From positions 322,774-386,773 of the forward strand of contig CAZJXP010000001.1 in the NCBI GenBank assembly GCA_964550175.1: DNA of 64,000 nt. The letters are read 5' to 3'. This DNA comes from an uncultured Methanosarcinales archaeon (lineage in GTDB: Archaea; Nanobdellota; Nanobdellia; Woesearchaeales; ARS49). Position numbers and translations under genes: made by a program. The stretch's first letter is position 1; each line of letters begins with the position of its first letter. Shown here in pieces: positions 10,337 to 40,510 of this stretch. The notes beneath the pieces are model-generated. The model ran no database searches. It worked only from the letters and a program-made list of their open reading frames with translations, and was not told where the DNA came from.

Positions 10337-10467
10337 TGGACCCGGACAGATTTGAACTGTCGACCGGTGGTGTGCCTAGGTTAGCCTACCTGTGCAGACG
10401 TGAGTCTGCGTTGTGATGAGCAGCGCCATATAAGACCACTGCTCTAGCCGGACTGAGCTACGGGTCC
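10337..10467 (-). tRNA. tRNA-Ile-like (anticodon TAT) with a 56-nt intron at canonical position 37/38
   Basis: Reverse complement gives acceptor GGACCCG/CGGGTCC, D-arm GCTCAGTCCGGCTAGAGC, anticodon stem GTGGT...ACCAC interrupted by an insert after CTTATA, T-arm GACAGTTCAAATCTGTC. Confidence 0.7.
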
Positions 10468-14088: not shown

Positions 14089-14700
14089 TTTTTCTACGAC
14101 CGCACTAGCGACGCTACAAAAATAGCCGGTAAAAAGTCAACGTGCGAAGAAGCTGTAACGAAATAAATGCGACCTGCCGTTGCGGCGGTTGGCGGGCGCA
14201 GCCCCGGCCAGCAATGCCGCCAAAAACACGACTTTTTCTGCCATTTTACCCCCTTTAAATACCTCGACGATACCTTTATATACAACCTACTAGGTTCTTC
14301 AGCTATTCCCTTCACGACGAAGGGAATCTTTGATCAACACCAACAGTTCTGTCCATCACCAACCTCGGTTGGAAGGCGGTATTTCCCCGCTGCGAGACGA
14401 ATGTCAGCGAACTCACAACATCAGATGTTGTGCGCTCATATTCATGAATGCGCATCGCTACAGATGCGCACGATGAACGAACAACCAAACTGTCAATTCT
14501 AGAGAGTTTTATAGTGATGCTTCGAGATTAAGCTCGAACGTATTTTTGACACGGATACTTTTTCGAAAGGAAAATTATCGTGCGAAAACAGCAATGTTTT
14601 TCGTGTCAAAAACGATACTTGCGACCAAAATAAAAAGTTAATGAACGCGGCCTCGACAGCAATGTCGAGATGTTCATAGCTTGCAATTAGACGAAACGTC

Positions 14701-16171
<1,471 letters not shown>

Positions 16172-16292: not shown

Positions 16293-16364
16293 GGGCTCGT
16301 AGCTCAACGGTAGAGCGCTCCCTTTGCAAGGGAGAGGCTCCGGGTTCAAATCCCGGCGAGTCCA
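16293..16364 (+). tRNA. tRNA-Ala (anticodon TGC) in the 16S-23S spacer
   Basis: GGGCTCGTAGCTCAACGGTAGAGC...CTTTGCAAG...GGTTCAAATCCCGGCGAGTCCA with the G3:U70 identity pair. Confidence 0.9.
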
Positions 16365-16560: not shown

Positions 16561-16829
16561 AAGTTCGTTCGTCAGAAACGTAGTCACAAAGTTCACAGGA
16601 AATCATCAAGCTCATTGGTTCATAACGATGGGAAACGCTCGGCGGCTGTATTGCGTCGATCGATTGGTTAAGGAAATGAGTATGACAAATTTAATGGGTG
16701 ACCGTTGTTCACAACGGTCACGCGGAACAACAGGTTCCGTGATGTCTTCACTCTCATTTTGATGCGACCGTGCATGAGGCCTATATTGCATAAGATAGGG
16801 AAATCGACTTGAAAGAAAGTCAAATTAAC

Positions 16830-19800
16830 TTATATGGTGGAGGACTTGGTTCTCGACGCCGATGAAGGACGTGGCAAGCTGCGATAAGCTTCGGCGACCC
16901 GCACGCAGGGGTTGACCCGGAGATCTCCGAATAGGACTTCCTTTTAAGACCGCAAGGTCGGGGAACGGGGGGAATTGAAACGTCTTAGTACCCCCAGGAA
17001 AAGAAACCAATAGGGATACGGTGAGTAAGAGCGACTGAAAACCGCATACGACAAACCGAATCTTGCATTGAAAGATGCAAGGCATGTGGTGTGATAAGGA
17101 CTTTCATTTAGGCTACGCTCGATACGACAAAGTCGCCTGGAACGGCGCGCCAGAGAGGGTGATAGCCCCGTCGTCAGTGTTGAGAGAGCTGAGAAAGTAT
17201 CCTGAGTACTGTCCCTCGGAAATGGGGCAGGAAGATGGGAGGCATCTACTTCCAATCGTAAACACGTCGAGAGTCCGATAGCGTACAAGTACCGTGAGGG
17301 AAAGTTGAAAAGAACCCGTGACAGGGAGTTCAAAGAGCCTGAAACCATATAAGGATAGTCCTCTAATGCTTCAAGGAGTGTTAGAGTCCGTTGCGAATAA
17401 TGTGCCAGGGAGTGCCGGGGATGTGGCGAGGGTAAGCAGATCATCTGCGGACCCGTAGCGAAAGCGACACGCACGCAGGTAACAAGGTGCGCGGTATGAA
17501 AGTGCCGGAAGTCACATCATGGCAACCCGAAACCACTCGATCTAATCCTGAGCAAGATGAAGCGGGGGTAAAACCCCGTGGAGGTCTGAAGAGGTTCTGG
17601 ATGCATCCGTTCTTCTGACTTGGGATTAGGGGTGAAAAGCCAATCGAGAGTGGTGATAGCTGGTTCCTTCCGAAATTGGCCATAGTCAAGCCTCAAGCGA
17701 GATGGCGTTCGCTGTAGAGTCACAGATTGGGGGCTTAGGCTTCGAAAGAGGTCGGCCCTTTGTCTAACTCCGAATACGAGCGCGTCGTAGACCTTGGGAG
17801 TCGGGGCGTCGGCGTAAGGTTGATGTCCAAGAGGGGAACAACCCAGACATACATTAAGGTCCCTAAGTACCAATTAAGTGTGAAAGGCGAAAGGTTGTTC
17901 ATTGCCACAGACAGCGAGGAGGTAGGCTTAGAAGCAGCCACCCTTTAAAAAGTGCGTAACAGCTCACTCGTCAAGGCAATGAGTACCTACAATGGACGGG
18001 GCTAAATTGGTCACCGATATGTATGGCATCTCAAAAGGATGCGGTAGGAAGGCGTTCGGTGCGCGTAGAACGTGGCTTGAAAGGGCCACGGGAGCGCTTC
18101 GAAATGAGAATCCTGGCGTGAGTAGGATCATAGTGCTGTGAGAATCAGCATCGCTGAAAGGGCAAGGGTTTCTAGACACTGTCGATCAGTCTAGAGTTAG
18201 TCGGTCTTAACTGCGACCCCCACTGGGTCGTGTGAGGAAAAGGCAACAGGTTAATATTCCTGTACCATGTGTGTATGTGCGGCAACGCAAGCGTCATTAC
18301 CGACGCTTCGGGGTCAGTCGACACGAACTGTCGTTCGTGCTAAAGAAGATACAACCGAGGAGTATCGTCATGATGAGAATCGGTTGAACACTCTGAATGG
18401 TTCCGCTTTGCGGAATTCGGCCTATCCCTGGAGCCCGTGAAAAGGGAAAGACGAAAAATCACATATGTCCGTACCCAGAACCAGCACTGGTGCCCCTAGG
18501 TGAGAAGCCTCAAGTGTGAAGGAGACAACCCGGGCGAGGGAACTCGGCCAATTGGTCCCGTGCCTTCGGTAGAAGGGATCCCTGCGGCCGTGTGCATATG
18601 CATGGCGGCGGCAGGGCGCAGAGACCAGGGGTTCCCGACTGTTTAACAAAAACACAACTTCGTGCGAAGCTGAAAAGCTGTGTATACGAGGTGACGTCTG
18701 CCCAGTGCAGGTATCCGAATACCCTTTTCAAGGGGTTAAAGGACCTGTAAACGGCGGAAGTAACTATAACTTTCTTAAGGTGGCATTTACGACTGCCTTA
18801 GTGGGGTGTGAGACCCCTTCGATTGATTCACGCGCGCCGTGAACGACGAAAAAATCTGGCTATATGCTGGAACATCTGTTGCTGTTTTCGAATTTTAAAA
18901 CGAAAACAGCGTCAACGCAAGTTGATATCCGGTTGCATTGGTAACGGTGCAAACGCAGACAATCAGCAGGAAAGGCCGAGGCGACTTTTCGGAGTGTAAT
19001 AACTCCGAAGCGAAGCTTCGGAATCCTCAGAGACTGCATGCCAAGACAGCATTTTATGGAGAGCTCATCACTCACCGACATCAGCAATGATGGAAATGTT
19101 GAAGATACAGTCCGAGCTTAACAGCGATGTTAAGAACGTGACAGAAATGATCATGTCGTCAAGCAATTGACGTAACAAAAATGAGCGAAATGCCTTGTCA
19201 TTTGATTGGTGACGTGCATGAAGGGCGCAACGAGGTCCCCACTGTCCCCGCCCGGAATCCTCTGAAACCCCCTTCTGGTGCAAAGGCCAGAGAAGTCCAG
19301 TAGGAAGTGAAGACCCCGTGAAACTTTACTGTAGTCTGTCGCTGTGACGTGGAGATCATTGCATAGGGTATGCAGGAGCCGTTATGCGGAAACTTTCGGG
19401 TTTCCGATAGGCACCGATGTAACACTGCACTCTGATTTCCGCGCCGCTCACCCGATTGGGGACACCGATTGACGGACAGTTCGGCTGGGGTGGCACGCCG
19501 ATGAAAACATATCATCGGCGCCCAAAGGTTGGCTCAGACGGGTCAGAAATCCGTCGTAGCGTGCAAGGGCATAAGCCAGCCTGATTGGAATCCGATCAAG
19601 AACGATTCCAAACGCGAAAGCGTGGCCTAGCGAACCTCACTGCGCCTCTTGATGAGGCCGTGGGATGACCGAAAAGTTACTCCGGGGATAACAGAGTTGT
19701 CGCGCCTGAGAGTTCACATCGACGGCGCGGCTTGCTACATCGACGTCGGCTCTTCCTCTCCTAGGTGTGCAGTAGCATCTAAGGGTACGGGAGTTCACCG

Positions 19801-20105
19801 GTTAAAAGGGATCGTTAGCTGGGTTCACAACGCTGTGAGGCAGTTGGTATACGATCCACTGGACTTGCATAAACTTCTGAGGGGAAGGAAGACATAGTAC
19901 GAGAGGAACTGTCTTTCGTGGCCTCTAGTCTACCGGTTATCTGACAAGGTATTATGCCGGGCAGCCACGCCATATGGGATAAACACTGAAAGCATCTAAG
20001 TGTGAAACCCACCTCGAAAAGAGAAGAAAGGACGCTCATAGAAGATGAGTTCGATGGAAACGGGGTGTACGTGTTTAGGTAACGAGACACTCAGCCTGCG
20101 TTCCC
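16830..20105 (+). rRNA. rrl: 23S ribosomal RNA, interrupted by a ~402-nt intron
   Basis: GATGAAGGACGTGGCAAGCTGCGATAAGC near the 5' end; conserved GTAACTATAAC, CCCCACTGTCCC and GACCCCGTGAAACTTTACTG blocks; GAAAGCATCTAAG near the 3' end. End coordinates approximate (+/-20 nt). Confidence 0.9.
18782..19183 (+). other. Intron within 23S rRNA, between CTTAAGGT and AGCGAAAT (domain IV)
   Basis: The universally contiguous CTTAAGGT|AGCGAAATTCCTTGTC is split by ~402 nt with no 23S similarity. No LAGLIDADG-like ORF inside (only 63-75 aa junk ORFs). Confidence 0.75.
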
Positions 20106-20338
20106 CAAAAGTCCGTTATTACTTTATTTTATGTTTTGTAGGATGATCATTCAGGCAACTTTATGATCAATGCGCCTTCGGCGCTCTCATGCACGGTCGT
20201 TTCTTTTTTTTATTCTAGTTTTATTTCATTTTCAATGGATTCAGCGTGAGCTGGATTCTGAAAAATCATTTTTGAATGGAGCTAGCGAGAGCCATATTAT
20301 GACTGAACAGTTAATGAAAAAGCAATAAATAGAGTTAA

Positions 20339-21130
20339 TTAATTACTAGGAATAATTATTGTTCCAGAAATATCTCCTTTTTTGATTTCTTCAGAACTTA
20401 TAAGCATCACACGTTTATTTGTTTCAGTTAAGAAACTTTGACATTTATTAATAAGCTCGGTTGTTTTTGCTAACAAATCAGCATTTTGAGATTGAACTAC
20501 ATTCAAATCAAGATATTGCAATTCTGCTAATGTTATTCGACTATCATGTCTATCTTTATTCATGAACAAAGAAACCACTTCGTGCGTATGTCCAAAATCA
20601 TCATATTCTACATGTTTAAATTTAAACAAGGATGGTTTTGTGTTTATCATCCCCATGATTTTAAATTTTGCAAAGTTAAATATTTGTTTAGCATTTTCTT
20701 TTAGCAACGGGTCTTCCGATTTAATATGTTTAATGGCTCTAAACCAACCCCCCTCATACTGACAAACTGGGTCAATTTGAGTTATTACTGTATTGGGAGT
20801 TAGAGTTAATTCATCTGCTTTCAAAAATAAGCAACATAAGGAAGAGCAGCAATGAACTGGCACGTATACTTGAAAGGAGGATAGATTTTCTCTCAATATG
20901 TACGCCATAATAATTGCTGTTTTAAAATCGCCACCCTCACCATGAAGTATGACCGTTAAATTTTTACTAATGCTTGACTGCATAAAATCCATAAGCCATA
21001 TTTCATCATTTTCTTGGATTTCCTTATGATGAGCATAAATTAAAAAAATAAATTCGCGACCAAGGATTAACTTTATTTCTGCCTTAACTGAATAAATTTC
21101 TTTATTCAATAAGTCTAATTTATCTTGCAT
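20339..21130 (-). CDS. ClpP/S49-fold (crotonase-like peptidase fold) protein in the AT-rich island
   Basis: Segment LHGEGGDFKTAIIMAYIL...VYVPVHCCSSLCCLFLKAD...TPNTVITQIDPV parallels ClpP INSPGG...MAASMG...PNS.IMIHQP. Cys-rich where ClpP has the catalytic Ser region. AT-rich codon usage. Confidence 0.4.
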   Translation of the reverse strand: MQDKLDLLNKEIYSVKAEIKLILGREFIFLIYAHHKEIQENDEIWLMDFMQSSISKNLTVILHGEGGDFKTAIIMAYILRENLSSFQVYVPVHCCSSLCCLFLKADELTLTPNTVITQIDPVCQYEGGWFRAIKHIKSEDPLLKENAKQIFNFAKFKIMGMINTKPSLFKFKHVEYDDFGHTHEVVSLFMNKDRHDSRITLAELQYLDLNVVQSQNADLLAKTTELINKCQSFLTETNKRVMLISSEEIKKGDISGTIIIPSN

Positions 21131-21285
21131 ATTAACCTAAACGTGTCACTACATATATATTTAATGCTGCATTACAAATGATATCTAAATAACATACAAT
21201 TAATATACAGGAAGCTTTATAAATCAATTAAACCGTATAAAGTCATAATAACAGACGTACCTATCGGCAGCTGTGGAGGTGCTAT

Positions 21286-21498
21286 ATGGGCAAACAAATA
21301 AATATTCGTCTTTCGGATAAAGCAGTGAAAGAATTAGAGGACTTAAGAACTCGATTAAATTTAAGTTCGATTTCTGATGTGATTCGTGGTAGCATAGCTC
21401 TTCAAAAATTCATTGAAGATGAAAAAAGTAAGAATAAAGAAATTGTTCTAAAAGATAAACGAACTAACAAAGAACAAGTTATTGTAACCCTTAGGTAA
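21286..21498 (+). CDS. Small ribbon-helix-helix-like DNA-binding protein (70 aa)
   Basis: N-terminal beta-strand/helix pattern INIRLSDKAVKELEDLRTRL typical of RHH (CopG/Arc). Confidence 0.4.
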   Translation: MGKQINIRLSDKAVKELEDLRTRLNLSSISDVIRGSIALQKFIEDEKSKNKEIVLKDKRTNKEQVIVTLR

Positions 21499-21503
21499 AC
21501 CTA

Positions 21504-21767
21504 ATGCCAAAAGAAGAGTTTATTGAAATTACGGAAATTACTGACGGAAAAAAAACGCAGCACAAGTATCCAAATTTTGAACCAGAATTAAGTGTGAAAC
21601 CTCAAACAACAAAATGGTTTTTTTACACATTTAATTGGATATCACTATTGTTCTGTTTAACTTTTATTATTTTGATATTTTTGGAAAAACCGTTGCCAGA
21701 ATACTTCATTGGATTTATAGGTTCCATAATCGGATATTTCATTGCAAAAAGACCATATGAACTATAA
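21504..21767 (+). CDS. Small 2-TM membrane protein (87 aa)
   Basis: Two hydrophobic helices; 5-nt gap after the RHH gene suggests an operon. Confidence 0.4.
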   Translation: MPKEEFIEITEITDGKKTQHKYPNFEPELSVKPQTTKWFFYTFNWISLLFCLTFIILIFLEKPLPEYFIGFIGSIIGYFIAKRPYEL

Positions 21768-21785
21768 TTTACGTACGAGTTATCT

Positions 21786-22313
21786 ATGCAATTCAAGAAA
21801 AAGGGAATCATTCATGTTTCCATTCAAGATATCATGCTTGAAGACGGAACTACTATTGGCGTATTTGAAGGAAATCGTGGCGCGAATCCCGATCACGATA
21901 TTCTCATTAAATATCAAGAAAAAGCAAAGCGGTTACGCACGCCAAAACACGTTCATTGGGTTATTGACTTGCTAATTAAAAAACAGCATAACCCCGAACT
22001 AACGATTAAGTTCATGACTTATTTACGAAATATGTACGATCGTGTTGAAAAGTTCACCAGTAAAGAAGATAGAGCAAAATGTATTTTGAAAGAAACGACA
22101 AAAGTAAAATTAGCGCCATTTAAGGAGCTCGATAAGTATGGTGAGTATAAAGTAGAATTCGTTGGTCATCTTATTGAACTCATGATTAAGATGGAAAAGA
22201 ACACCCCGCCAGACAAACCTGCTCGCGTGTTCAGAGAATTAATTGATGCTATGATTCAAGAAAAAGACATATTTTCAATCGTGAGCAGAGCAACTCAAAT
22301 CGGCGGCCGTTAA
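21786..22313 (+). CDS. Hypothetical protein (175 aa), convergent and tail-overlapping with the Dam methyltransferase
   Basis: AT-rich ORF; stop overlaps the MTase stop region. Candidate partner of the MTase, which is speculation. Confidence 0.4.
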   Translation: MQFKKKGIIHVSIQDIMLEDGTTIGVFEGNRGANPDHDILIKYQEKAKRLRTPKHVHWVIDLLIKKQHNPELTIKFMTYLRNMYDRVEKFTSKEDRAKCILKETTKVKLAPFKELDKYGEYKVEFVGHLIELMIKMEKNTPPDKPARVFRELIDAMIQEKDIFSIVSRATQIGGR

Positions 22314-23197
22314 TAATTTGTCACAACAACTTCATTAATCAGTCCGCGACCGTCACTTCTGCAATTAATCATGCGTTTTGCCTGAACCGTATGAATATTG
22401 TATTTTGAGTAGAGTTCTCGAATAAACGTCGTGTCGCTATTGCTTAACATACAGAGAACGCCCTTTTTATCTAGCTTCTTGAAGACGTCAGCGAGTGCGA
22501 GCTGTTCCTTGTCAAGGAAGTCTCCTTTTGCATATTTTGTGAAGCTGGGTTTTCTGTCAAGCGGATAGTACGGCGGATCGAAATAGACGAAATCTCCTTT
22601 CTGACATTTATCAAGAACAACTTCAAAACTGCCCGTTGAGGTCTTAAATTGCTTCAATATCTTGTTTAATTCCTGAATATTGTCTTTTTGAATTATGTTT
22701 GGATTTTTGTACTTGCCACAGGGCACGTTAAATTGTCCTTTGCTATTGACACGGTGCAAACCGTTAAAACATGTTCTATTGAGATAAACAAAACGTGCGG
22801 CACGTTCTTCCTTTGATAACGTCTTCACATCAAGCGCACGTACTTTGTAAAAATGAGCTGCTGAATGCTTTTTCTTATGTTCTGTCAACAATTTTGTTAA
22901 ACGTGTAGGATTGTCACGAACAACTTCATATGTGTCAATAAGCTCAGAATTAACATCCGAGATGAACAGTTTCTTTTCCGGAAATTGTTTCGCTAGATGG
23001 AACGCGACAATTGCACTTCCTGCGAACGGCTCAAAGTAGTTGTTGAACGATTCGGGAAAGAGAGGAATAAACTGAGCAAGAAGCTGCCGTTTGCCACCTG
23101 CCCATTTTACAATGGTTGGCGCAGTGATAACTTCTTTAACGATCGCAGTTTGCAACGGAACACCCTCTTTAATGAAGGAAGATATTGCGAGCTGCAT
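22310..23197 (-). CDS. DNA adenine methyltransferase (Dam / D12 class N6-adenine MTase)
   Basis: Motif I FEPFAGSA and motif IV DPPY; overall Dam-like length and order. Confidence 0.85.
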   Translation of the reverse strand: MQLAISSFIKEGVPLQTAIVKEVITAPTIVKWAGGKRQLLAQFIPLFPESFNNYFEPFAGSAIVAFHLAKQFPEKKLFISDVNSELIDTYEVVRDNPTRLTKLLTEHKKKHSAAHFYKVRALDVKTLSKEERAARFVYLNRTCFNGLHRVNSKGQFNVPCGKYKNPNIIQKDNIQELNKILKQFKTSTGSFEVVLDKCQKGDFVYFDPPYYPLDRKPSFTKYAKGDFLDKEQLALADVFKKLDKKGVLCMLSNSDTTFIRELYSKYNIHTVQAKRMINCRSDGRGLINEVVVTNY

Positions 23198-23285
23198 ATT
23201 TTAAGCTTTGCATAAGTAGTTAAATTGGCTACGAGCCCATGTCCAGTGACAAACATTTTTAACTAACCTATAGATTATATAATCA

Positions 23286-23954
23286 ATGAGAAAAACACAA
23301 GAAAAGTTCCTCTTCTCCCCCTCCTCGCTGAACCTCCTCAAGGACTGCCCCCGTTGTTTCTGGTTGCAGTTCAACAAGGCCATCAAGCGTCCGGCAGGCA
23401 TCTTTCCATCATTACCATCAGGCATGGATCATGTTCTGAAGACTCATTTCGACCGGTACATCGGGAAAGGACTCCCATCTGAGTTGAAGAACCTTGAAGG
23501 GGTCGAACTGTTCAGCGACAAAGCCCAATTGGACCTCTGGCGGTCGAACTTCAAGGGAATACGCCTAGAAACGCCTGCGTACACGCTCCGTGGTGCGGTG
23601 GACAACCTGCTCGTGAAAGGAAAGAAACTCATTGTGCTTGATTACAAGACGCGCGGTTTCCCGCTGAAGGAAGACACGCATCACCATGCAGAAGATCAGA
23701 TGCACCTCTACAACTTTCTGCTGCGCAAGAACGGCCACGCGACCGAAGACTACTCCTATCTCCTATTCTACCATCCGAAGGAAGTGCTGGAAAACGGCGA
23801 TGTCGTCTTCAATAAGGATTTAATCAAAATTCCTGTGGACATCAAGCGTGCCAAAACCATCTTGAAAACAGCCGTGAAAACGTTAAAGGCAAAGTGTCCG
23901 AAGAAGTCTTGCGACTGGTGTCAATCACACACAAGTCGACCAAAACCAAAATAG
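23286..23954 (+). CDS. PD-(D/E)XK nuclease, Cas4-like (RecB-family) with Cys cluster
   Basis: N-terminal CPRCFW, central IVLDYKT (D-x-K) and C-terminal CPKKSCDWC, a Cas4-like Fe-S cysteine arrangement. Confidence 0.6.
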   Translation: MRKTQEKFLFSPSSLNLLKDCPRCFWLQFNKAIKRPAGIFPSLPSGMDHVLKTHFDRYIGKGLPSELKNLEGVELFSDKAQLDLWRSNFKGIRLETPAYTLRGAVDNLLVKGKKLIVLDYKTRGFPLKEDTHHHAEDQMHLYNFLLRKNGHATEDYSYLLFYHPKEVLENGDVVFNKDLIKIPVDIKRAKTILKTAVKTLKAKCPKKSCDWCQSHTSRPKPK

Positions 23955-24443
23955 CCCTGCTATTACCGAAAAGACTGCTACTGACAAAGCAGCTATCGTT
24001 GAAATTTTGATGTCTTTTGAAACGACAAACGTGATGCCCAGTACCGAAGCGCCGAATGCCCCTGCTAGAAGAAGAATACTTAAAATCGCACCGACAATTC
24101 CCATGGATGCGAATCCACCATACTGATTAGCTAATTTACAAAGTGCATCATCCTTTATGCAACGACCTTCAGAGCACGCATTTCCATTTTGAGCACAATC
24201 TTCATTTCGCACGCACGATTCTCCCTGTGCACTTTTCTGACAATGACCTGATCGACAGCTGCCAACGGCACAATCATACGTTGAAACGCATTCTTCAAAT
24301 TCATTACTTTTTGCACAGAAACCGCCTTCACAGCGACCTGAAAGACAATCAGTCGGAATTTCGCATGATGAATGAGCGCCGACTCGACCATCACAGCCGG
24401 CGAGCATCAGCAGCATAATCGGCAAAATCCACCAATATTTTTC
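23925..24443 (-). CDS. Cys-rich surface lipoprotein with C-terminal TM anchor
   Basis: Lipobox LLMLAGC; repeated C..DC..G.C..G.C modules (about 22 Cys); C-terminal hydrophobic helices. Confidence 0.55.
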   Translation of the reverse strand, partial: EKYWWILPIMLLMLAGCDGRVGAHSSCEIPTDCLSGRCEGGFCAKSNEFEECVSTYDCAVGSCRSGHCQKSAQGESCVRNEDCAQNGNACSEGRCIKDDALCKLANQYGGFASMGIVGAILSILLLAGAFGASVLGITFVVSKDIKISTIAALSVAVFSVIAGLFWFWSTCV

Positions 24444-24869
24444 CATGCCCATCCCGCGACGCACGGAATGCAATCCGTTAAAAGGGTTATGGACGCAAAG
24501 TACTTTGCCATATAAAAATTAAAGAAAGACAACCATTCATCTCGGCGCTTTCACCCTCCTCACCCTCATCTCAACGCAGGTGCAGAAGCGTTCAGGTTTG
24601 TTGCACATGACGCACAGCACGGGTCAGTCGCAGGTGATGCAGGTCATTCTTCCCGTGAGCAAGACACGCAGGCGATGGTTGATATTCTCGACGTGCTGCG
24701 TTCTTTATAACAACGCAAACTTAATTCCCGCAATTCTTCCGATTTTTCGGAAAAGTTTCCGGATTATCTTGAGAAACTCATATCAAGCCAAAATCATCCA
24801 CTTCACCTCATGGACTCCAAAGCCCAGAAAACCTTAAATATACATACCGTGTTAATACGGGATACATAC

Positions 24870-25124
24870 ATGGTGCAGGCAATCATAAACATCCCGGAAC
24901 ACACGAACCAGCTTCTGAACATCGTGAAAGCGAAGTACGGACTGAAGGACAAGTCTCAGGCCATCGAGAGAATGGCGGAAGAATACGAAGAAATCGTCCT
25001 CGAGAAGCCGTTCAAGCCCGCGATGCAGAAGAAGCTTGAACGCAGGCTCGCGGACATGAAGAAGGGCATACGCACGACGCGGATGACGCAGAAAGAAGCT
25101 TTGGAATACCTGAAGGGGTTGTGA
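24870..25124 (+). CDS. Antitoxin (small helical/RHH-like) of a RelE/ParE-type pair
   Basis: 85 aa, overlaps the downstream toxin by 4 nt (GTGA). Confidence 0.5.
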   Translation: MVQAIINIPEHTNQLLNIVKAKYGLKDKSQAIERMAEEYEEIVLEKPFKPAMQKKLERRLADMKKGIRTTRMTQKEALEYLKGL

Positions 25125-25375
25125 GCTATCATCTCGAATTCAGCGACGCTTACCAGCGGGACTTCAAGAAAATAAAGAAGAAAGACCCTGTCCGCGCGTC
25201 GCAGATCAAGCGGAAGCTTGAGGAGGTCGTTCTCGCGCCAGAACGATTCAAACCGCTTCGCAACATCTTAGCTGGATTCTATAGGCTCCATTTCGGAAGT
25301 TTCGTGTTAATATACTGCATAGAAGGGGATTGTGTGTACGTCGTTGGTATCGAACATCACGATGATGCTTACTAG
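25121..25375 (+). CDS. Type II toxin, RelE/ParE family
   Basis: 84 aa; C-terminal YRLHFGSFVLIYCIEGDCVYVVGIEHHDDAY matches the RelE/ParE Y-R-[IL]-R-x-G-x-Y-R-[IV]-I-Y...H-R-x-x-Y pattern. Confidence 0.7.
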   Translation: MSYHLEFSDAYQRDFKKIKKKDPVRASQIKRKLEEVVLAPERFKPLRNILAGFYRLHFGSFVLIYCIEGDCVYVVGIEHHDDAY

Positions 25376-38388: not shown

Positions 38389-39090
38389 ATGGAACTATCC
38401 CAGAAGCCCAAGAATGTAACAGTCATAGCAGGTTTTCCCGGCTTCGGACTTGTCGGCACTGTGGCAACTGGTTTTCTCGTCGACCATCTGGACGCCGAAC
38501 GCATCGGAAACCACTGGTTCGAGGAGCTGCCCGCGACTATCGCGCTGCACGACGGCAAAATCGTCGATCCCGTCGGCATCTACTACTCCAAGAAATACAA
38601 TCTCGTCATCGTCCACAGCATCGCGAATGCTACTGGCGTCGAATGGCTAGCTTCTGATTTAGTATTGCAAGTGTGCAAGGAACTTAGCGCGAAGGAACTG
38701 ATAGCGATCGAAGGCGTCGGCAGCCAACGCATGGAGCTGCAGCGCGCGTTTTACTTCTCTACCGACGGTAAAAATGAGAAAGCGTTAGCGAAAATCGGCG
38801 TCGAGCCCTTGAAGGAAGGCATCATCGTCGGCGTCACGAGCTCACTTTTGCTCAAAGCGAAACTACCAATCACTTGTTTGTTCTCTGAAACTCATACGAA
38901 TCTGCCGGACTCCAAGTCAGCCGCGAAAGTGGTTGAAGTCTTGGACAAGTATCTTGGCTTAAACGTTGACTATCTGCCACTCCTGCAGCAGGCAGCCGAG
39001 TTCGAAGCAAAGGTCAAGACCATCCTTCAAAGCCAGGCCAAGACCCAAACGGACTCCGAAACCAAGAAGAATTTGAACTACATCACGTAA
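38389..39090 (+). CDS. Proteasome assembly chaperone family protein (PAC2/PbaA-like)
   Basis: VIAGFPGFGLVGTVATGFLV N-terminal signature of the archaeal PAC2 family. Confidence 0.7.
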   Translation: MELSQKPKNVTVIAGFPGFGLVGTVATGFLVDHLDAERIGNHWFEELPATIALHDGKIVDPVGIYYSKKYNLVIVHSIANATGVEWLASDLVLQVCKELSAKELIAIEGVGSQRMELQRAFYFSTDGKNEKALAKIGVEPLKEGIIVGVTSSLLLKAKLPITCLFSETHTNLPDSKSAAKVVEVLDKYLGLNVDYLPLLQQAAEFEAKVKTILQSQAKTQTDSETKKNLNYIT

Positions 39091-39270
39091 TTCTGGCATT
39101 ATGCTCACTTTTAGCCTTGTTTGATACTTGATGATGGTTTGTTCTGAGGGTTAATTCTCCCTTTTTTCGACCTTTGAGCTAGTGCCTAATGGGAATAGTT
39201 GAGTTTGAGACTGGTTGGCTACCTGATAGCTCACAATTCTAGCTCACCCAAGCAAGTCTGCCCAAGCCAA

Positions 39271-39365
39271 CTCTTTACCGCCACGATTGGACGCGTTCGG
39301 GCATCGACCGTTTTTGTGATCCAGCCAACTGCTCAAAATCTGCCGGGGACGACGGCAAAAATGAC
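39271..39365. repeat. Intergenic palindromic element copy (right end degenerate)
   Basis: CTCTTTACCGCCACGATTGG ... CTCAAAATCTGCCGGGGACGACGGCAAAAATG. Confidence 0.6.
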
Positions 39366-40510
39366 GAACAGGCGACTGCGACCTCCCCAAACTGCCCTTC
39401 GGCACCCAAAAACTCACTCACAAACTCCCCCTCGAATGCGCCGTTACCTTGCAAAATCAAACGAACTCTCACTTTTTGCCTTCAAATGATTTATTTTAAA
39501 TATGCAAGGTAATTACTCGAGCATGCCTTGAATAACTAGAATATCGAGGTTCAACAAGATAAATAACAATAGTTATTTTCTGTCCATTAGTTTAGACTTA
39601 CTCATTATCAGATAGTTATTTTAAAAACTATTTCTTATGCAACAATAATTCTTTTAAATGAATTTGTCACTAAAAATTAGGTAGCAAAGTCAATCAATTT
39701 TGTTCTTCAATTGCGAATTTTGAAATGCAATTGAGTGAATTGTCGATTTTCTCGCCTGATTGAGCGCGGATCAAAAATGACCTCAATTGCACCAAAACAA
39801 GGGTTCAATTAATGACTTTTTTCCTGACGCTAGCGCGCGAAAACAGTCCAAAAATAGACCGCACAACGCGCCTAAAACCTCTTGCGCGCGAGTTTTCAAC
39901 CGGCCGCGATAAACCCTCAAACAAACAAAAATCTCGCGTGAAATCGCCCCTGTTTTCGCCATAAAAACCGCAAAACTATCGTCGTAACCATTGAAACCAA
40001 CCCCATTTTCAAACCTGTCAGCGATAATCCCGAATTTTCTTCATTTGTGCGAATAAATGGATCTTTTCGTGTGGCAGCAGGCTTCGGCGCGACGACCCCC
40101 GTGACCTCGTCTGCAGGGATTAAGGAGGAAAGTCCGGCAGAATGGCGACTGGGACGGGATTTGGCACGACCGGACGGGTTTCGCGCGAACACGACAGTTT
40201 AGGGGTTTGTCAAAAGTGTCGGCAAAATCCCGACGACACGAATTGAGCCCCTCAATGCCACCAAAACCAATCATCCAGCCTAGTGTGGCCCTGGTGTTTG
40301 TACCTTTTACGCAAAAAAGTGGCTAGAATCGGCTGTAAACGCGTCGCGTGAAGGACTTGGATTGATGGTTACCCCCCATTTGCGCACCTGCGCAATAACT
40401 TCTGCATTTTGATTAAAACTTTTAATTCGGATGTAACCCCCGAAACCTGTCAGGGATTGTTCCGAAAGGTTTAAATCACACCGCATGCATCCAAAATCAG
40501 CAAAAAACAG

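Follow-up and report, generated by a model that had tools for sequence, protein, structure and literature searches.

The AT-rich stretch that separates the gene for 23S rRNA from a Cas4-like gene reads as an insertion of foreign low-GC DNA of ∼3.16 kb, in which two independent modules lie side by side. Module A would be a two-gene GATC modification/restriction-like unit, made of a DpnM-like Dam methyltransferase and a convergent gene for a 175-aa protein, here called X. Module B is likely a toxin–antitoxin (TA)-like cassette of a ClpP-fold protease, a ribbon-helix-helix (RHH) protein and a small membrane protein (2TM). The insertion and these readings of both modules, taken jointly, are the best explanation that we can offer, and we put the chance that they hold together at about even. 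The recipient is a Woesearchaeota-like DPANN archaeon of 52% GC, and the Kae1 protein of the 64-kb stretch that was analysed (the window) matches Woesearchaeota at 63–69% identity. All comparative data on both modules come from metagenome assemblies.

GC in the island (20129–23285, 3157 nt) is 0.29–0.42, compared with about 0.50–0.55 in the flanks. Along the window, the profile falls from ∼0.47–0.57 over the rRNA genes and the left flank to 0.285–0.37 at ∼20200–22000, lies at 0.36–0.43 up to ∼23000 and then returns to 0.45–0.52. In 1-kb bins, the island accounts for the three lowest values of the window (0.343, 0.312 and 0.380), the next-lowest being 0.418 at 39001–40000. The sharp drop that an earlier note on this DNA had described between the 23S 3′-end and the Cas4-like gene is thus evident in profile and bins alike; for the flanks, its figure of 55–58% is nearer 50–55%. 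Codon usage of the island genes is AT-rich, as had been claimed, with GC3 of 0.20–0.40 against 0.59–0.80 in 13 of the 14 flanking genes. A low GC3, 0.36, is also seen in the flanking gene p182 (23925–24473). The five genes of the note (263, 70, 87, 175 and 295 aa) were all recovered, three of them in module B (20339–21767) and X and Dam tail to tail in module A (21786–23197), where the overlap of the two stops that it had reported amounts to 4 nt shared in the stop region. A 52-aa ORF at 20170–20328 is probably spurious. The Cas4-like gene, with GC3 of 0.63, is a host gene. Coordinates are collected in Table 1.

Table 1. Features of the island and its borders (window coordinates)
Feature	Position	Strand	Evidence and remarks
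23S rRNA	16813–20128	+	Rfam RF02540, 2466 bits; archaeal; left boundary marker, outside the island
Group I intron-like insertion in 23S, 399 nt	18785–19183		RF00028, 52.1 bits; limits from alignment to the 23S of L136
Left junction	20129–20338		23S trailer with GC hairpin (GCGCCTTCGGCGC), T-run, AT-rich spacer; read from sequence
SDH-type ClpP-fold serine protease, divergent subfamily, 263 aa	20339–21130	-	Candidate triad Ser96, Asp120, His195
Divergent promoter region, protease/RHH	21131–21285		TATA-like boxes at either side; GGAGGT precedes the RHH start; sequence
RHH DNA-binding protein, 70 aa	21286–21498	+	PF01402; conserved ∼30-aa C-terminal tail
Small membrane protein (2TM), 87 aa	21504–21767	+	Hydropathy, alignment A3
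X, 175 aa	21786–22313	+	Family without characterised member; starts 18 nt past the 2TM stop
Dam-family (D12 class) N6-adenine DNA methyltransferase, 295 aa	22310–23197	-	TIGR00571, PF02086, PADLOC, PDB
Right junction	23198–23285		88-nt spacer, Dam start to Cas4-like start; sequence
Cas4-like PD-(D/E)XK protein	23286–23954	+	PF12705 1.2e-10, phrog_31195 5e-40; right boundary marker

Comparison with related genomes, which the earlier note had suggested, gave an empty site: in a distant relative (L136/L137) the Cas4-like gene follows the 23S gene, in 16S–23S order, after 109 nt instead of 3157 nt, and we therefore regard the island as an insertion. The 23S trailer of L136 likewise closes with a T-run. 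Together with the foreign GC3, the empty site upholds the horizontal acquisition that the note had proposed. A native region, whose low GC is local composition and which the short-spacer relative lost by deletion, would be compatible with the low GC3 of p182 and with the fact that the empty site is known from one independent lineage only (16S 83% identical). We consider such an origin very improbable, as the GC3 of the island genes lies 0.2–0.6 from that of 13/14 neighbours, both modules are patchy and occur in unrelated genomic contexts across phyla, and X–methyltransferase modules have GC systematically under that of their hosts where the hosts are GC-rich.

The note had further treated the island as a single unit and possibly as a degraded integrated element, i.e. 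what is left, after decay, of one mobile element (virus, plasmid or other) on which all five genes arrived together. Neither idea fared well. The cassette of module B occurs without X or Dam in L002–L007 and L098–L100, and L102 has a distant protease with an RHH protein and no recognisable 2TM homologue; X–methyltransferase pairs without the cassette are found at about 90 loci, and no locus besides the window holds both modules. GC also differs between the two (0.29–0.31 versus 0.37–0.40). Profile searches found no integrase, transposase or capsid gene in the island and, as the note had said, no match to a known restriction-endonuclease model. Direct or inverted repeats at the flanks, for which it had proposed a search, are limited to imperfect, chance-sized matches of 12–24 nt (13–21 nt for direct repeats), with no att repeats. 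X as a gene of mobile elements was rejected because it has no match in phage, plasmid and IMG/VR collections. Thus a single element is improbable, even though the foreign stretch is unbroken and adjoins the rRNA operon, mobile elements often carry RHH regulators and methyltransferases, and the 263-aa protein weakly resembles phage families (phrog_11747, 4e-11; a ClpP-related head-maturation protease, 0.0027).

In module A, the Dam-type call of the earlier note was borne out by matches to TIGR00571 (2.2e-84) and PF02086 (2.9e-64), along with PADLOC MTase_II (9e-95). The best PDB match is 2dpm (M.DpnII 1, the DpnM of the DpnII system; 1.6e-68), and the island enzyme is predicted to methylate GATC. 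Homologues of X form >700 clusters and were found in 335 species genomes, mostly DPANN. Beside them are methyltransferases, either D12/Dam (DpnM-like) or DpnA-like (PF01555), as a rule in tail-to-tail order and 0–30 nt apart, and among intact copies with sequence on both sides, a full-length GATC-type methyltransferase lies within 1.5 kb in 46 of 48. Hence the pairing of the methyltransferase with the 175-aa protein, one of the options in the note, is kept across dozens of genomes. Copies of X without a methyltransferase, all from metagenome-assembled genomes, have a clipped C-terminus in five out of five cases, and next to three of them the methyl-dependent DpnI takes the place of the methyltransferase. 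Each of these three stops just past ‘MEKN(TP)’, without the final two helices, in a reading frame that is otherwise intact; they are nevertheless read as clipped, and X as a DpnD-like partner of DpnI was rejected. At ∼80% of loci, X and one methyltransferase form a compact convergent pair, with no other gene downstream of X. Four bacterial loci place X within a Dam-DpnA-X-DpnII operon, and at a few archaeal loci X lies directly upstream of other candidate nucleases, e.g. Y2 with a DIDLIW...SIEVK motif.

The module resembles DpnII-type systems (dpnMAB of S. pneumoniae, encoding DpnM, DpnA and DpnII) in that its methyltransferase is closest to DpnM, X is accompanied elsewhere by DpnM-like or DpnA-like enzymes, and some bacterial loci are literally dpnM-dpnA-X-dpnB. 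The replacement of the methyltransferase by DpnI beside X recalls pneumococcus, where DpnI and DpnII are alternative systems (PMC3812788). In contrast to these systems, the partner in the window is unrelated to DpnII or to any Pfam or PDB entry, and the island has no DpnII-family gene.

Searches with X gave no match in Pfam, PADLOC, NCBIfam or PDB; no known nuclease fold or motif (PD-(D/E)XK, HNH, GIY-YIG, PLD, half-pipe) was detected, and 28 members searched against HTH families gave no match. Homology to DpnII was rejected at an hhalign probability of 0.1. The family has invariant charged residues (D38, R51, K54, H55, H57, D61, K65, E137 and K138), all present in the window copy, which suggests an enzyme; the predicted architecture, a small N-terminal beta domain with a helical bundle, would suit a DNA-binding protein too. 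Identity is about 75% for X versus about 50% for its methyltransferase, and X is under strong purifying selection, stronger than that on the methyltransferase, with synonymous sites saturated. Recent transfer was discarded as the cause of this conservation because four-fold degenerate sites are near saturation (0.39 versus 0.33 expected). X and Dam showed no correlated evolution (r −0.02). GATC has an observed/expected ratio of 0.49 in the window and of 0.59 across X loci; as depletion is equally strong (0.52) in 64 DPANN loci chosen without regard to X, it does not discriminate and was dropped as evidence of restriction by X.

We propose that X is the methylation-sensitive partner of Dam, most likely as a restriction endonuclease of type II whose family and fold are undescribed or, in the same scheme, as another toxin acting on unmethylated GATC DNA, and that intact X would be kept only where a GATC methyltransferase is present. 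We give a new family of restriction endonucleases, or a methylation-sensitive toxin of another kind, about even odds, and the label ‘defence or addiction’ given to the island by the earlier note is plausible for this pair. Like a type II restriction–modification (R-M) system, module A combines a D12-class methyltransferase that has GATC-type relatives, itself of putative specificity, with a conserved neighbouring partner that appears not to be tolerated alone, to judge from the clipped copies in metagenome-assembled genomes; the nuclease fold of such a partner was not detected in X. The nuclease reading is weakened by the conservation of X above that of the methyltransferase, which is atypical of restriction enzymes. 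Against it, moreover, the Dam-DpnA-X-DpnII operons already hold a restriction enzyme.

These same operons, in which X stands beside an intact DpnII, make an accessory role conceivable. X would then be no nuclease but a methylation-dependent accessory to GATC methyltransferases that uses the m6A mark as reader, regulator, or repair or replication factor, somewhat in the manner of SeqA, MutH or a controller protein, and most X–methyltransferase pairs would be orphan Dam systems with a partner, not R-M systems. Such a role could also account for the position of X upstream of other candidate nucleases, the undetected nuclease fold and the very strong selection, and archaeal Dam-like GATC methyltransferases are frequently persistent orphans (PMC10609329). 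We nevertheless hold it to be rather doubtful. Lone compact X–methyltransferase pairs in unrelated contexts, some of them transposase-flanked, behave as a selfish R-M unit, a harmless reader should outlast loss of the methyltransferase for a while, contrary to the clipping of every such copy, and the numerous invariant Asp, His, Glu and Lys residues look catalytic. The controller (C) proteins of R-M systems are small HTH proteins encoded just ahead of the R gene and transcribed together with it; in the four bacterial loci X has a fitting position upstream of DpnII, but it lacks an HTH and is roughly double a controller protein in size. It is unlikely, though worth stating, that X is no classical restriction enzyme but founds a previously unrecognised class of effectors that depend on GATC methylation, with a new fold and a slower rate of evolution than that of universal proteins such as Kae1, while the cassette of module B could, separately, be a TA module that carries a ClpP-like protease of its own into organisms without ClpP.

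For the proposed methylation-sensitive partner, promoters offer a further link to GATC. In 11 of 35 X promoters a GATC adjoins the TATA box at −35/−36, compared with 4.5% expected (p 2e-7), and in these genomes transcription of X is therefore probably coupled to methylation state. The CfrBI R-M system is reported to be controlled by a single recognition site in a shared promoter region (bioRxiv 10.64898/2025.12.04.692298), and the two are alike in that the recognition site lies within the core promoter of X at about a third of loci. Unlike CfrBI, X promoters are of the archaeal BRE/TATA type, and an effect of methylation on them is a candidate only. The window copy has lost the GATC–TATA promoter found in other genomes, so that X would have to be transcribed by read-through from the upstream RHH operon.

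Module B appears to be a self-contained three-gene cassette, with a soluble protease bearing an intact Ser-Asp-His set and divergent from the RHH and membrane genes. The ClpP fold that the earlier note had assigned to the 263-aa protein is supported by PF01972 (3.5e-5) and NF047768 (1e-7), which fall below the family cut-offs (23.4 versus 31.3 bits and 31.6 versus 250, respectively), and by a predicted structure of ClpP/crotonase fold; 10 of 50 relatives match PF01972 at E ≤1e-3, the best at 8e-19. A Cys-rich motif in place of the catalytic Ser, as the note had it, is not what the family has: Ser96 (HCC-S-SLCC) is retained and invariant, and D120 and H195 are ≥90% conserved in 50 sequences. 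The alignment places these residues in the order Ser, Asp, His along the sequence, which concerns order only and which we take to be that of the catalytic residues in the SDH-type PF01972 family. The window protein shares this order with SDH-type ClpP-like proteinases (PF01972 and NF047768; more distantly SppA and NfeD/1510-N) and differs from them in its Cys-rich active-site strand and in that a divergent RHH gene accompanies its family in every case and a gene for a small membrane protein in most. It belongs to this cassette and is not linked to the methyltransferase, a pairing that the note had considered. With 91 representatives among 1.84 billion, the family is a small one; a scan of species genomes with its close-family pattern found nothing, and the literature was uninformative on the function of PF01972/DUF114.

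The RHH call likewise held, PF01402 (RHH_1) matching residues 5–38 at 22.5 bits over a cut-off of 20.5. The protein is 66–69% identical in L002 and L007, its homologues adjoin distant protease relatives in L098, L099 and L102, and the protease–RHH spacers of L002, L098 and L099 have the layout of the window. The 87-aa protein, 49–55% identical among homologues, has one strong TM segment, a second, Gly-rich hydrophobic segment and a conserved C-terminal AKRPYEL. Judging by how its genes are ordered, by the RHH domain and by the variety of its genomic contexts, module B is most likely TA-like: the RHH protein would autoregulate the divergent promoters, and the dedicated protease would remove it or process the membrane protein, the putative effector. 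The cassette had no match in PADLOC. Type II TA modules pair a known toxin family with a DNA-binding antitoxin; here the RHH protein is present, no toxin family matched either the 2TM protein or the protease, and the only fit to a TA module is the cassette-like distribution. Repressors paired with a dedicated protease include ImmR/ImmA and CapH/CapP, and omega-epsilon-zeta is a three-component TA system. The cassette resembles these in its small DNA-binding protein beside a dedicated protease and in its compact, patchy occurrence in varied contexts. Unlike the repressor–protease pairs, its protease is a ClpP-fold Ser enzyme, not a Zn metalloprotease, and its regulator is RHH, not HTH; unlike both kinds of system, its third gene encodes a membrane protein and it is known from genes alone.

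The locus is a clear case, insertion versus empty site, of genes passing from DPANN genomes of low GC into those of high GC. The protease cassette, a rare and cleanly delimited three-gene unit, could reveal the role of SDH-type ClpP-fold proteases, and the GATC motif in X promoters makes it possible to test whether transcription from an archaeal TATA/BRE promoter is coupled to methylation. X is widespread in DPANN and other uncultured lineages, where restriction genes are seldom recognised. If X is a nuclease, it would be a new restriction-endonuclease family, probably of new fold, for GATC, which is among the most used recognition sites, and many apparent orphan Dam methyltransferases would be reclassed as complete systems. 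If X belongs to a new effector class, many ‘orphan’ Dam/DpnA-like methyltransferases of DPANN, Methanoperedens and CPR bacteria would belong to an epigenetic system of two components. Should X be no nuclease, it would be a partner of GATC methylation under very strong conservation and of uncharacterised chemistry, which would be more interesting still.

Directly past the 23S rRNA gene, GC content falls from ∼0.5 to 0.29-0.37 (20200-22000), stays at 0.36-0.43 until 23000 and goes back up after ∼23200, the sole drop of such depth in the 64-kb window; milder dips to 0.415-0.445 at 14200-14800, upstream of the 16S rRNA gene, and to 0.418 at 39001-40000 were also seen. GC at third codon positions (GC3) is 0.20-0.40 in the five island genes versus 0.59-0.80 in 13 of 14 neighbours. 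GC profile, ORF positions and GC3 all agree with the sharp fall and the five genes of AT-rich codon usage described in the earlier note, and this contrast stands, but the flanking GC, which it put at 55-58%, measures nearer 50-55%. The window is archaeal DNA, and its host is a relatively GC-rich DPANN archaeon, because the product of the neighbouring Kae1 gene is most similar to proteins of Candidatus Woesearchaeota (63-69% identical; metagenomic matches up to 80%).

Relatives of the locus were sought in metagenomes using the Cas4-like protein encoded at the right boundary of the island as query. In two metagenome loci, L136 and L137, whose 16S rRNA is 83% identical to that of the window, the 16S-23S operon is followed by the Cas4-like gene after just 109 nt, compared with 3157 nt in the window. 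These loci represent the empty site and the island is therefore an insertion, with the main caveat that the empty site comes from one independent, distant relative lineage only. Together with the foreign GC3, the empty site supports the horizontal acquisition proposed in the earlier note. The proposal of one island, or one degraded integrated element, finds no support, and the island consists of two modules: X (the 175-aa protein) and Dam are absent from all other loci with the cassette of the 263-aa protein, the cassette is absent from all ∼90 loci with X, GC differs between the two modules (0.29-0.31 versus 0.37-0.40), profile searches of the window found no integrase or transposase gene and a repeat search found no meaningful flanking repeats.

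Coordinates of the features in the window and in the metagenome loci compared with it
Feature	Sequence	Position (strand)	Remark
16S rRNA	window	14704-16171	Rfam
tRNA-Ala	window	16293-16364	Rfam
23S rRNA	window	16813-20128	Rfam
23S insertion	window	18785-19183	399 nt, relative to L136 23S
Group I intron match	window	18772-19134	RF00028, 52.1 bits, cut-off 50
105-aa ORF	window	19198-19515 (-)	overlaps exon beside insertion
tRNA match	window	10337-10467 (-)	131 nt, Rfam
182-aa Cys-rich gene	window	23925-24473 (-)	
104-aa ORF, then 84-aa ParE-family gene	window	24810-25375 (+)	
23S rRNA	L136	2958-5867	
Cas4-like gene	L136	5977-6657	
Extra genes between ParE gene and Kae1	L104	424-10000	∼9 kb
DpnI-family gene in methyltransferase's place	L057	3474-4686	PF06044 + PF17726, with shortened X
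DpnI-family gene in methyltransferase's place	L063	4938-6180	PF06044 + PF17726, with shortened X
DpnI-family gene in methyltransferase's place	L069	3663-4939	PF06044 + PF17726, with shortened X
Family Y1	L008	5448-6011	
Family Y1	L047	5494-6045	
Family Y1	L055	5543-6124	
Family Y1	L077, L034, L037		
Family Y2	L030	5515-6051	
Family Y2	L064	5467-6045	
Family Y2	L045	1628-2155	

The insertion inside the 23S gene overlaps a group I intron match, and no ORF of at least 40 aa starts inside it; archaeal rRNA seldom contains introns of group I. The neighbouring 105-aa ORF lies over exon sequence, as many spurious rRNA ORFs do. The 131-nt tRNA match, absent from the ARAGORN output, is probably an intron-containing archaeal tRNA. 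On the other side of the island, a gene for a Cys-rich protein with a hydrophobic region at its C-terminus shares 30 nt with the 3′ end of the Cas4-like gene; its GC3 is just 0.36, unlike its neighbours, no homologue was found in related loci, and the gene could be a further foreign one or evolve rapidly. The 104-aa ORF and the ParE-family toxin gene (PF05016 in the annotation of locus L001) are likely a toxin-antitoxin pair, which is kept beside the Cas4-like gene in relative L104. Since L104, whose Kae1 is 80% identical, carries extra genes between ParE and Kae1, this neighbourhood is a variable region.

The Dam protein of the island is a standard D12-class methyltransferase, most similar to DpnM from the DpnII system, and its pairing with X, raised in the earlier note, proved to be conserved. 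X homologues of 172-197 aa form >700 clusters at 73-83% identity, and relatives occur in 335 species-level genomes, mostly DPANN, with other hosts among Methanoperedens and other Methanosarcinales, Bathyarchaeota, Hadarchaeota and Patescibacteria; at 33-39% identity they extend to gut Bacilli/Mollicutes, Hydrogenothermaceae and others. Of 45 genes that lie right next to X and converge on it, 22 encode a D12/Dam methyltransferase, 16 a DpnA-like one (PF01555) and 3 the methyl-dependent enzyme DpnI. In species genomes where X has 1 kb or more of sequence on both sides, a full-length methyltransferase of the GATC type lies no more than 1.5 kb away from 46 of 48 intact copies, and all five X genes lacking a methyltransferase are shortened at the C-terminus, three after ‘...MEKN(TP)’, where DpnI abuts tail to tail, and two after ‘...ARVF(R/K)E’. 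The DpnI-family loci of three Woesearchaeota genomes look like the archaeal equivalent of the alternative DpnI and DpnII systems of pneumococci. Bacterial X loci have the order Dam-DpnA-X-DpnII, which is the pneumococcal DpnII operon dpnMAB (PMC3812788) with X inserted. Two further families of small, uncharacterised proteins, Y1 and Y2, recur beside X and neither has a Pfam match; by eye, a ‘DIDLIW...SIEVK’ pattern in Y2 resembles the PD-(D/E)XK nuclease motif.

We give about an even chance that X is a new family of restriction endonucleases or methylation-sensitive toxins. A restriction-like role is suggested because X forms a compact convergent pair with a methyltransferase in unrelated contexts, some of them transposase-flanked, exchanges partners between two methyltransferase families whose specificity is presumed to be the same, is not found intact where a methyltransferase is lacking, and has invariant Asp, His, Glu, Lys and Arg residues (D38, R51, K54, H55, H57, D61, K65, E137 and K138). 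The X-Dam pair would work like a DpnII-type GATC restriction-modification unit, yet X has no known nuclease fold: its confidently predicted structure (pLDDT 88.7, pTM 0.85) consists of a five-stranded N-terminal beta domain and a helical bundle and has no PDB match, and searches including Pfam, PADLOC and NCBIfam gave no profile match. Homology of X to DpnII was considered and rejected, the two being unrelated by profile comparison.

Against a nuclease, X is also found alongside DpnII and, at a handful of archaeal loci, alongside other small candidate nucleases, and it is more conserved than its partner, which would be unusual for a restriction enzyme (∼75% identity among DPANN phyla versus ∼50% for Dam). 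Synonymous sites of X are saturated (0.39 versus 0.33 expected) and its divergence does not correlate with that of the partner, so this conservation stems from purifying selection over a long time and not from recent spread. Such features would suit a methylation-dependent accessory factor, which we consider the less likely of the two readings.

Outside the window, the TATA box of X promoters lies ∼25-32 nt upstream of the ATG, and in 11 of 35 X loci it is directly preceded by a GATC (4.5% expected, p 2e-7), at the BRE position and with a peak at -35/-36 from the ATG. The motif GATC(T/A/C)NTTTAAAT is conserved in promoters at X loci L019, L021, L022, L027, L030, L033, L043, L046 and others. 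This points independently to GATC as the relevant site and suggests, at the level of sequence, that X expression may be coupled to methylation; methylation-coupled control is reported for CfrBI (bioRxiv 10.64898/2025.12.04.692298). X of the window starts 18 nt past the stop of the upstream membrane-protein gene and is without a GATC-TATA promoter. GATC depletion cannot be traced to X: it is strong (153 sites in the window versus 319 ± 15 in shuffles) but lineage-wide, GATC being depleted more than any other 4-base palindrome in DPANN generally (observed/expected 0.52 in 64 metagenome loci, L108-L172), with low values for GGCC, GTAC and CTAG as well.

The other module encodes the 263-aa protein, for which a search of 5.8 billion proteins found just three close relatives and an exhaustive one of 1.84 billion gave 91 cluster representatives. 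Its profile matches make it a diverged relative of the SDH-type ClpP-like proteases: it matches NF047768 (1e-7) and, under the cut-off, PF01972 (3.5e-5), which 10 of 50 family members match (best 8e-19). These matches and a ClpP-like predicted structure support the ClpP fold named in the earlier note; the Cys-rich stretch that it places at the catalytic Ser region does not replace the nucleophile, as the cysteines flank it in HCC-S-SLCC and Ser96 is retained. In the 50-sequence alignment Ser96 is invariant, with conservation of 90% or more at Asp120 and His195. The protease is probably active, because the Ser-Asp-His set is kept in the family order, which we take from the Pfam description to be the defining feature of PF01972.

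Wherever context is visible, a ∼70-aa RHH gene is divergent from the protease gene, usually followed by a small membrane-protein gene. This holds from proteases 46-53% identical to that of the window (L002-L007) through 37% (L098) and 28% (L099/L100) to 22%, where the contig with P0151 shows gene sizes and order only, no DNA, and L102 has the RHH gene and no recognisable membrane-protein homologue. The flanks vary at every locus (isocitrate dehydrogenase, a ribosomal protein operon, PRPP synthase, TFIIB). The RHH protein scores above the Pfam cut-off and is more conserved than the other two (66-69%), and the divergent protease/RHH spacers, 155 nt long in the window, have TATA-like boxes on either side. 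A compact unit that contains an autoregulator and moves between contexts suggests a toxin-antitoxin-like system, in which the protease would target either the RHH protein or the membrane protein; for the membrane protein as target there are parallels among the structural neighbours of the protease, SppA, described as a signal-peptide peptidase, and NfeD, described as a stomatin-specific membrane protease. No PADLOC model matches the cassette and nothing informative on the function of PF01972-type proteases or the cassette was found in the literature; the module represents a diverged offshoot of a known protease family, set in a conserved three-gene arrangement that we did not find described.

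The most valuable result, beyond the emphasis of the earlier note, is that its 175-aa ‘hypothetical’ is a conserved, uncharacterised partner of GATC methyltransferases. In a survey of archaeal restriction-modification, type II restriction genes were hard to recognise and Dam-like GATC methyltransferases often appeared orphan (PMC10609329). X may account for part of this picture.
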